Source: Escherichia coli (lineage in GTDB: Bacteria; Pseudomonadota; Gammaproteobacteria; Enterobacterales; Enterobacteriaceae). Taken from it: a DNA stretch of 64,000 bases. Location of the stretch: assembly GCF_045037415.1 (NCBI RefSeq), contig NZ_CP173438.1, one strand, 5' to 3'. Below, piece after piece: positions 17,861 to 20,800 of this stretch; position 1 is the first letter of the stretch; each line of letters opens with the position of its first letter. The position numbers are program-made.

Positions 17861-20800
17861 TAAGTGATGCACACGGAAGATGAGATGTGGAAAGGATTAC
17901 AGAGACATTAAGTATCGCTTGTGCAGATGAGATACCGGATATCGCCTTACTTCGGCAAACATCGAGAGAGAAGGTATTACATCTGCATTTTGCCAGCGAA
18001 GCAGAGAGGTATCGTGAGGAATTCGGGCTGGTGCTGAAAGCACAGCTCGATGAATTTGTTGTTGGCATGCATTCTGCCGACCCGGTTATCAGGATCGCCA
18101 GATTAATATCGCTTGAAGAGATTAACCGCCATCAGGATTTTTTCGAACACTGCGCGAAAGAATATCGTAAGCTGGCGACAGAGCTTATATTTGCATTGGC
18201 TGAACAACTGAACGTTGAGATGGCGGAAAATAACCCGCTAGTTACCTTTGCCCCCTTCAAATGCAACCGTAAGCGAAAAGGCAAAATGGGAAAGTGGCAG
18301 TATTGTTTTCACGGTTTTCATTGTACATTTGAGAATAAAAAAACAGAGCAAAATATTGAAGTTCCCCTCGCCTACGGCTTTGATTTCGGCGATCTGGACC
18401 CGTATTTTTTTTCCGGATTTATCAAATCGACCCCCGCCTGGCAGCCTCTGCCAGTGGCTATTTACGATGATTACCACGACGGTAGCAGGATCATTCAACA
18501 ACTGCTGGCGCTGGGAAAGTTACAAAAAATCCCTTCACCGATCCCACAATACACGGGGGTTGCTGCGGTAGATCGGTCCAATGTCGACATCGCAAATTTT
18601 CGCTCAACACTGGAGAGTCGCCTGCACCGATGTAAATTACGCTGGCTTTTGAAGCATGTAAAAAATTCACAAAGGAGCGAAAGATGAAATTTGACCATCT
18701 TGTTGATGTTAGCTTCCACAATTTTGTCTTTAACGGAAAATTCGATTTTGTCGAACTGGGGCAAACAATGGCATGGTTGGAACAAAACTTTGTTGAGCCG
18801 GACTCTAAAAATGATATGGGAAATGGTTTTTATATCTGGCTATTTGGTAATGTTGAGTTTCATTTCGAAAACAACAAGCTATATATGATTTGGTGCGATT
18901 ATCTGAGCCAAATCCATTTGGGCAAAGCGATCCGATTTGATAAAGGAATATTGAATAACGTCGCTGAGTTGAACGTTACGCGTGTATTTAACATGCTTGT
19001 TAACGAAGGCGCTGATCTGCAAATCCGCCGTCAATCGCCCCATACACTCTTAATCCACGTCAATCGCTCAGGCGTGACACTTTGGTTTGAAGCAGATGAA
19101 GAACAGCCTGGTGATCCGCAGAATTATATGCTGATGGCATTTGGTTTGACACATCGCGATTACGATGCAAGATTTCAATATTCATAAATGGCGGCGTCAT
19201 ATCATGACGCCGCGACGGGGTTCATTACTGCCAGCTCACCTCACCTTTCGGTTCATAAACACTCACATCCAGCGGCGAGCTTTTCTGGATATACGCTTTC
19301 AGCACTTCGGCATCAATAAAGCCGGTATTCACATAGCCCGGTTTGTTATCAAGGCGCGGATAGCCATCACCGCCGGTGGCATTGAAGTTTAATGTCGCCA
19401 TACGGTAAGTTTTCGCCGGATCGACCGGTTCGCCTTTGATTTTCAGGTCGTTCAGTTTGCCGTCTTTCGCCACAAAGCTAACGTTGGCAAATTGCGGGTA
19501 GGCACCTGAATCTGGCTTCATTTGTGCGACGGCTGTCAGGTAATCAATCACCTCTTTACCGGTCATGTCGGCATACACCACCACATTGCCGAATGGCTGC
19601 ACTTTCAGCACGTTTTTATAGCTGATATCACCTGCTTCGATAGAATCACGAATTCCGCCTCCGCTCATCACCGCAAAGTCGGCACCAGTGCGATCCATTT
19701 GTGCTGCCAGAATCAACCGCCCCATATTGGTCTGTACAAAACGCACTTTGTCACGATCGCCTTCCAGACGACCATTGGTTTCGCCTATTTTCACTTCCAG
19801 CTGCGCTTTGCCTTTGTTCTGGAACGGTGATAACAGCGAGATCATTTGCTGGTTTTCAGCGATTTCAGGGGTGTACAGCACGCGCTCGCTTTTCCCGTCT
19901 TCCCAGGTCACTTTCTTCTTCAGGTTCACCGGAATCAGCTGGTAGTTAACCATTTTCATTTCGCCATTACGAAACTCAAAATCAGCCCGTCCCACGTATT
20001 TGCCCCACTCATGCGCCTGCACAATCCAGATGCCGTTTTGTTGATCCGGTTTGCATGGCGTACCCGGCACGTAATCGACCTGTTTTTTGTTTTCTGCCGC
20101 CATACAGACCGGATCTTGCGAGTGACCACCGACGATCATCGCCAGCGATCCGGCAGGCAGCGCGCGTGCCATCTCCACATCGCCCGGTGCGTTAGAGCCG
20201 TGCTCACCATTGTCGTAATGCCCCATATGGGTCGCCGCGATAATAATGTCTGGCTTTTCTGTCTGTTGCAGCTCCTGAATCACCAGCTTCGCTTCATCAG
20301 CGGGCTTACGAAATTCGATATCAGTGAAATATTCCGGATTACCAATTTTGGCTGTGTCATCCGTCGTCAGGCCAATAACGGCAATTTTCAGATCCTGACG
20401 CTTAAACAGCGCCCATGGTTTAAACAGGCGCTCGCCGGTACTTTTCTGGTAGATATTGGCGGAAAGCAACGGGAACTTAGCCCACTTTTCCTGCTGGCGT
20501 AATACGGTGAGCGGGTTATCAAATTCATGATTACCGATCGCCATCGCGTCATAGCCCACCAGATTCATACCGCGAAAATCAGGTTCGGCATCCTGTAAGT
20601 CGGACTCGGGCACGCCAGTGTTAATGTCGCCACCGGAAAGTAGCAGCACGCTACCGCCTTCAGCCGCAACCTCTTTGCGGATACCATCCACCAGCGTTTT
20701 TTGCGCCGCCAGACCATATTCACCATATTCATTGCGCCAAAAATGCCCATGATGATCATTGGTGTGCAGAACTGTAATTTTGTAGGTTTTATCCTGCTCG

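Follow-up and report, generated by a model that had tools for sequence, protein, structure and literature searches.

The ybaK-ushA locus

We analysed a stretch of 64,000 nucleotides from an Escherichia coli chromosome (contig NZ_CP173438.1, assembly GCF_045037415.1), referred to here as the window, and focused on a small gene, ORF B (open reading frame B; 18684-19187, plus strand). ORF B encodes 167 amino acids plus stop and is annotated in RefSeq as a hypothetical protein (WP_000667000.1). It follows ORF A (17887-18687, plus strand), a 266-residue DUF6896 protein with a GTG start (RefSeq annotation, Pfam PF21837). According to gene order and RefSeq annotation, both reading frames lie between ybaK (17384-17863, plus strand) and ushA (19225-20877, minus strand), the latter followed by fsr and ybaL.

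ORF A, ORF B and a downstream hairpin together form a strain-variable segment of 1,361 bp (17864-19224, no strand), as defined by the junction in strain K-12, genome counts and GC content. K-12 has a 36-bp spacer between the ybaK and ushA stop codons in place of this segment, and the spacer contains a hairpin. The ybaK-ushA interval is a variable spot. The segment is carried by 774 of 5,426 complete E. coli genomes (14%), O25b:H4 among them, in every case as a single chromosomal copy, and it is at least 99% identical in 769 of them. GC content is 0.46 for ORF A and 0.40 for ORF B compared with 0.50-0.51 for ybaK and ushA. No direct or inverted repeats border the E. coli segment, which consequently bears no sign of a transposon or attC site, and no recombinase accompanies the E. 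coli copy. A phage or plasmid origin of ORF B was considered and rejected, with no homologue found on phage or viral contigs and the only plasmid copy being a truncated one on a Fulvitalea megaplasmid.

Translation signals of ORF B were read directly from the sequence. The Shine-Dalgarno motif AAAGGAG (18671-18677, plus strand) is separated from the ATG at 18684 by the six nucleotides CGAAAG. A preliminary description of this locus had recognized the motif correctly and counted eight spacer nucleotides; the corrected spacing of six is still optimal. An AGGAG at the same spacing is retained in locus L003, which carries an 86%-identical homologue. As also described before, the ATG overlaps the ORF A stop codon (TGA, 18685-18687) in an ATGA sequence (18684-18687, plus strand). 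This overlap is lineage-specific, with a gap of 22 nt separating the ORF A stop from ORF B in L003 and in the related locus L004. The encoded protein is acidic (pI 5.1; 22 Asp and Glu vs 13 Lys and Arg) and Phe-rich (16 Phe, 9.6%), with four Trp and one Cys, and its N-terminus contains neither a hydrophobic stretch nor a signal peptide. These values bear out the earlier picture of an acidic, Trp/Phe-rich protein lacking a Cys cluster or export signal, and we regard it as established that the product is cytoplasmic. Comparison with the L003 homologue yielded a nonsynonymous rate (dN) of 0.074, a synonymous rate (dS) of 0.597 and a dN/dS ratio of 0.12. Because of this ratio, together with the roughly 320 homologous cluster representatives and the confident structural model outlined below, ORF B is established as a genuine gene under purifying selection and not a chance reading frame.

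Scanning the intervals between ybaK and ORF A and between ORF A and ORF B, we found no strong promoter-like site, so that ybaK, ORF A and ORF B are probably located on one transcript. Downstream, a GC-rich hairpin with a 10-bp stem and a 3-nt loop (inverted repeat I9; 19191-19213, no strand) separates the stop codons of ORF B and ushA. Its calculated RNA folding energy is -18.5 kcal/mol (z -3.15) and it lacks a U-run on the plus strand. It likely serves as a shared or bidirectional terminator for ORF B and ushA.

Predicted fold and family of ORF B

Using an alignment of 116 family members, AlphaFold2 (AF2) yielded a model of ORF B with a predicted local distance difference test score (pLDDT) of 95.5 and a predicted template modelling score (pTM) of 0.90. 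The depth of the alignment was decisive, as a 3-sequence alignment gave a pLDDT of 41 and a confident model was obtained only with the 116 sequences. Based on DSSP assignment of the AF2 model, repeat 1 (residues 1-71; 18684-18896, plus strand) consists of two short helices and a four-stranded antiparallel sheet and carries the family motif G-x-F-D...G-Q-T-K-E-W...P-D...W-x-Y-G-x-x-E-F-H-F. Repeat 2 (residues 83-156; 18930-19151, plus strand) comprises a strand, two helices and a four-stranded sheet. In the model, each helix pair thus packs on a sheet of four antiparallel strands, with the two units in tandem as in BLIP, and we confidently predict that ORF B is built from two tandem alpha2-beta4 repeats of BLIP/BamE-like fold. 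Residues that are nearly invariant in the family (G18, F20, G26, P39, Y54, G55, E58, F61, L66 and F135) are of a structural kind, namely Gly, Phe, Pro, Tyr and Leu plus one Glu. They form no catalytic constellation and include no conserved polar pocket residues.

Sequence-based comparison provided little further information about relatives of known structure. The family profile gave a weak match to the BLIP-like protein 3d4e in the Protein Data Bank (PDB; E 0.22), based on the motif G-x-T...P-D...W in repeat 1. A Foldseek search of the PDB with the ORF B model returned no match at E<=0.001, and there was no significant profile match of ORF B to BLIP, BamE/SmpA_OmlA or DUF4309. Because significant PDB and Pfam matches are lacking, the relation of ORF B to the BLIP/BamE group is one at the level of fold only. 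Structure comparison returned YjgB/DUF4309 (4ygt, score 8.8), a domain of an SCP-domain extracellular protein (4ifa, 8.1), YfeY (2qzb, 7.9) and TsiN, a type VI secretion system (T6SS) immunity protein (9j9w, 7.5; 120 residues aligned). Overall, the predicted ORF B fold resembles those of BLIP, TsiN, BtiO, YdcD, BamE and OsmE.

Each of these proteins also differs from ORF B. Unlike ORF B, which lacks a signal peptide, BLIP and BLIP-like proteins (1jtg, 3gmx and 3d4e) are secreted; further, BLIP shows no Pfam-level sequence relation to ORF B, only single repeats superpose well and no link of ORF B to beta-lactamases is known. BtiO (a Bacteroides fragilis T6SS immunity protein), the YdcD double-wing domain (8wj5) and BamE/OsmE correspond to one repeat only, have no sequence relation to ORF B and, in several cases, are periplasmic or lipoproteins. 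YjgB of Bacillus subtilis and YfeY of E. coli share 4-9% identity with ORF B; we take both to be extracytoplasmic proteins whose function is not known. Judged from the predicted structure, TsiN of Acidovorax citrulli is the closest characterized cytoplasmic match, at 9% sequence identity. TsiN, an alpha/beta immunity protein of the cytoplasm, sterically covers the active site of the DNase TseN (PMC12574953). Its gene lies directly downstream of that of its effector in a vgrG/PAAR cluster, whereas no effector gene was found near ORF B or its homologues.

A separate local similarity was observed for residues 87-132 (18942-19079), where the helix pair and a 'NEGADLQ' turn match long ankyrin-repeat proteins in 7-11 stretches each. 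Likewise, a sequence search of the PDB with ORF B returned only a designed ankyrin protein (E 1.1). We judge this resemblance to be motif-level only because the modelled helices pack on a beta-sheet.

No database assigned ORF B to a family: Pfam (no match at E<=10), NCBIfam, PADLOC and PHROGs all returned zero families, the latter two also constituting our check for anti-phage defence. A Pfam scan of the 116 aligned family members gave no match at E<=0.001; one of them matches BamE at 0.027 and none matches the DUF4309 model. The families put forward in the preliminary description (SUKH/SMI1_KNR4, Imm and CdiI) found no counterpart in Pfam searches of ORF B and the 116 homologues or in NCBIfam. 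A word-indexed homologue search detected only seven near-identical clusters, and repeating it with a family profile added little and no names. An exhaustive hidden Markov model (HMM) scan, employing a profile built on three sequences, retrieved 320 cluster representatives with E<=1e-3, of which 135 reached E<=1e-10. With few exceptions, these are single-domain proteins of 150-180 residues. Scanning one genome per species with a 12-sequence alignment located members in Listeria, Paenibacillus, Propionibacteriaceae, Neisseria, Alysiella, Moraxella, Campylobacteraceae, many Bacteroidota, Myxococcales, Planctomycetota and Verrucomicrobia. AFDB50 adds homologues from Sebaldella, Acinetobacter, Eikenella and Corynebacterium, every one of them labelled 'uncharacterized'. 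Overall, these stand-alone genes, encoding proteins of about 160 residues, are spread in scattered fashion over Proteobacteria, Bacteroidota, Firmicutes, Actinobacteria, Planctomycetes and further phyla.

Two family members are fusions. The AFDB homologue A0A4Q3X181 joins an ORF B-type domain to DUF4279, and a second protein (P0071) joins one to DUF4240. One study (PMC9424270) places DUF4279, as FdL-Imm5, among the immunity families of polymorphic toxin systems, and another (PMC13304343) predicts that it provides immunity to an Rhs-Ntox33 effector as its partner. Literature searches on DUF6896, DUF4240 and both RefSeq accessions returned nothing.

Genomic settings of the ORF A and ORF B families

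ORF A matches PF21837 with an E value of 9.8e-14. No match to toxin domains, PADLOC or NCBIfam was obtained, and a profile of its family detected no sequence relative in the PDB. DUF6896 proteins of Enterobacteriaceae and Bacteroidota are 38-59% identical. In their alignment, W137, H142, G143, H145, Q155, E158 and D171 are invariant and C89 and C146 nearly so, with the motif F-H-G-F-H-C...Q-x-I-E-V-P-L...L-D-P-Y-F-F including an H-x2-H-C element, while the C-terminal tail is poorly conserved. Because conservation across phyla is strong and includes invariant residues, the family looks less like a polymorphic toxin; the pattern rather suggests an enzyme active site or a metal site.

The preliminary description had likened ORF B to immunity or antitoxin partners that neutralize an upstream effector. 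In such a model, ORF A would be the toxic effector, and the immunity protein or antitoxin cognate to it would be ORF B, matched in amount by translational coupling and binding 1:1. The ATGA overlap and the strong ribosome binding site are real, the predicted ORF B fold is of an inhibitor type, the conserved His, Cys, Glu and Asp residues of ORF A could make an active site, and the two genes occur together in all 774 matching E. coli genomes as well as in the 86% variant loci L003 and L004. Beyond these loci the association breaks down. An HMM of the ORF A family detected no DUF6896 member in any of 26 ORF B-family loci, and a six-frame search of further loci located ORF B homologues without ORF A in L002, L036, L037 and L038. 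In L002, a 65%-identical homologue follows an ABC-transporter operon and an unrelated gene of 176 codons at a distance of 122 nt, with no ORF A upstream. Conversely, Leminorella, Flavobacterium, Chryseobacterium and Chitinophaga carry ORF A-family genes (38-59% identity) that have unrelated neighbours and no ORF B homologue beside them. The overlap is also not conserved, and the 22-nt gap in L003 and L004 marks it as a local accident of where the variable tail of ORF A ends. Further arguments against the model are the missing toxin, PADLOC and NCBIfam matches of ORF A and its conservation across phyla, which exceeds the usual level of polymorphic toxins. Co-occurrence of both families across genomes, as expected of a type II toxin-antitoxin system, was not observed. 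Type II antitoxins usually carry a DNA-binding domain (helix-turn-helix, ribbon-helix-helix or AbrB) plus a disordered toxin-binding tail, and ORF B has no such domain, as judged from Pfam helix-turn-helix and ribbon-helix-helix models and from the compact two-repeat alpha/beta protein modelled by AF2. Comparative evidence thus indicates that the two families are distributed independently and that ORF B does not serve ORF A as a dedicated antidote, and we consider the toxin-antidote model quite improbable. A common origin of the W-x-Y/F-x-H-G/F-H motif seen in both proteins was also rejected, with an hhalign probability of 0.04 for the ORF A vs the ORF B family.

A DUF6896 gene is located 13-31 nt downstream of ybaK in other Enterobacteriaceae as well (L039, 2293-3585; L040, 4509-5729; L041, 549-1769), where the outer flanks differ, with IS605 OrfB upstream and a pseudouridine synthase downstream. 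In L040 and L041, from another Enterobacteriaceae genome, ORF A directly follows ybaK and precedes the pseudouridine synthase gene, and there is no ORF B homologue; L039 shows the same ybaK-ORF A pair on a contig that ends just after ORF A and so carries no information on ORF B. The pair may be older at the ybaK-ushA site than ORF B. This recurring adjacency also bears on another explanation, in which ORF B works with the DUF6896 protein, YbaK or another housekeeping factor as a partner or adaptor that does not inhibit it, such as a regulatory or scaffold subunit, and the ybaK-ORF A-ORF B operon has a shared physiological role instead of being a conflict system. The short spacers and the lack of strong promoter-like sites, which suggest one transcript, are in agreement with this, as is the general use of BLIP/BamE-like domains as protein-interaction modules, for example BamE within the BAM complex. 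Yet ORF B is missing from L040 and L041, its homologues have unrelated neighbours in every phylum and its GC content, lower than that of both ORF A and ybaK, suggests a separate origin. We regard a partner or adaptor role as very improbable.

In approximately half of the 26 family loci, the ORF B homologue is part of a run of small genes on the same strand. The run in Capnocytophaga felis (L036, 1-16474) comprises more than 24 small genes, most without a Pfam match. Among those with a match are SMI1_KNR4, Imm11 (faint), DUF4303 (weak) and LRR genes, and the run resembles an island of orphan immunity genes. In Sediminibacterium ginsengisoli (L037, 820-13994), at least 13 copies of a conserved repeat some 180 nt long, with the core TTTGCAAAAGTTGGGCGACAGAATATCGCCCATC ... 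CCCAACCTTCGCAAAGCCTTTAACGTTG, occupy the intergenic spaces between single small genes. This is an integron-like cassette array, and its genes include HEPN_AbiV, SnoaL, TerB, glyoxalase and the ORF B homologue. A recombinase resembling integron integrases lies directly upstream in Flavihumibacter (L022), and the array on the Fulvitalea plasmid is headed by a tyrosine recombinase. Pfam analysis of 122 small neighbours detected Imm43 twice and no toxin enrichment, the remainder being mostly generic cargo such as DinB_2, PIN, ABM and ABC_tran. In Moraxella oblonga (L015), small overlapping gene pairs were observed on either side of the ORF B homologue (5312-5979, 90 and 132 residues; 6521-7269, 119 and 130 residues). 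Their sizes fit VapBC-type toxin-antitoxin pairs; PIN domains occur twice among the neighbours scanned across all loci.

These settings resemble those of orphan immunity genes in recombinase-associated or integron-like arrays of Bacteroidota: ORF B homologues likewise belong to long arrays whose small genes all point the same way, some have SUKH or Imm neighbours and some arrays carry repeated intergenic elements or a tyrosine recombinase at their head. They differ in that many neighbours are generic cassette genes and not immunity genes. The E. coli copy, in contrast, is not in an array and has neither repeats nor a recombinase. Taken together, it is established that the ORF B family is a broad, unnamed and patchily distributed single-gene accessory cargo that is horizontally mobile and independent of DUF6896.

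Upstream of ybaK, the window contains copA (13012-15516, plus strand), ybaQ/higA (15574-15915, minus strand), a RelE/ParE toxin gene (15951-16253, minus strand) and ybaP (16386-17180, plus strand), as given by gene order and RefSeq annotation. The RelE/ParE (HigB-like) toxin gene, of 100 codons, is located upstream of ybaQ, which encodes a HigA-family antitoxin. In K-12, ybaQ is kept and the gap to ybaP measures 137 nt. Because no toxin gene lies beside it there, K-12 ybaQ looks like a solitary antitoxin, the remnant of a pair that is complete in this strain. Between ybaP and ybaK, the small RNA sroB/ChiX was detected at full length (17179-17262, minus strand; Rfam RF00368, 82 bits), with an internal terminator-like hairpin (17206-17187, minus strand) that is probably its terminator.

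Proposed function of ORF B

Our preferred reading, which we advance tentatively, is that ORF B binds protein autonomously and without enzymatic activity, probably as an orphan inhibitor of the immunity type whose target effector is encoded elsewhere. As a soluble cytoplasmic protein it would act alone as a stoichiometric protein-binding inhibitor and, as TsiN sterically blocks TseN, would block an effector that either arrives from outside or has its gene elsewhere. The E. coli copy would do so from the ybaK-ushA variable spot, behind the DUF6896 gene and probably co-transcribed from ybaK. Binding, inhibition and the target of ORF B are aspects that we infer. Independent action is supported by the absence of DUF6896 from the 26 loci, the single-gene cassette of Sediminibacterium and the recombinase-led arrays of Flavihumibacter and Fulvitalea. 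An immunity-type role is suggested by the company of the family, namely the Capnocytophaga array genes with SMI1_KNR4, faint Imm11 and weak DUF4303 matches, the two Imm43 genes among the 122 neighbours and the DUF4279 fusion, as well as by its small size, lack of catalytic residues and patchy spread across phyla. Of the earlier proposal of an immunity-type partner, the look of a small acidic cytoplasmic binder therefore survives, consistent with the predicted fold and the missing catalytic residues, while the role as antidote of ORF A does not.

Several observations weigh against an immunity-type function. The BLIP/BamE-type fold is shared by the non-immunity proteins BamE, OsmE, YfeY and YjgB, and generic cassette neighbours such as DinB, PIN, ABM and SnoaL do not point specifically to immunity. 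No cognate toxin gene was found adjoining any examined homologue, although such adjacency is characteristic of immunity proteins. NCBIfam analysis of 20 large neighbours gave no match to RHS or other toxins; 14 of them belong to housekeeping, regulatory or recombinase families (ClpB, GalT, AroA and an integrase, among others) and six to no family. Literature searches on the ORF B family returned no experimental or published information.

Some of these points are equally compatible with a different autonomous function, where ORF B would be a binder of small molecules or cell-envelope precursors, or a stress protein, travelling as generic integron-type cassette cargo. Homologues located among DinB, SnoaL, glyoxalase, TerB and similar cassette genes, and neighbour scans without a toxin, are what one would expect in this case. 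On the other hand, the family has no conserved polar pocket residues. Characterized members of the BLIP/BamE-like fold act by binding other proteins, so that protein-protein contact is the usual mode of action. The DUF4279 fusion and the SUKH and Imm genes nearby also argue against it, and we find a function of this type somewhat doubtful.

The orphan-immunity reading can be extended in a more speculative direction. ORF B may found an unrecognized cytoplasmic BLIP-fold family of orphan immunity proteins that moves as single-gene cassettes, with the copy carried by pandemic lineages such as E. coli O25b:H4 protecting against a specific effector of gut competitors; as a second possibility, DUF6896 may represent a new H-x2-H-C enzyme or effector that is regulated by ORF B only in Escherichia. 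We consider this extension unlikely.

In conclusion, ORF B belongs to a sequence family that is new, although its structural and functional kind is known, and it is an ordinary accessory gene whose function we infer. The comparison of both families corrects an appealing but unsupported annotation of the locus as toxin A and antidote B. The confident fold model and the family alignment provide a possible base for a Pfam family or for experiments. If the orphan-immunity reading is true, an unnamed and widespread class of proteins, comprising about 320 clusters without a Pfam entry, would join the inhibitors of interbacterial conflict, and competitive fitness in the gut could be influenced by a lineage-variable locus that 14% of complete E. 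coli genomes carry, O25b:H4 among them.

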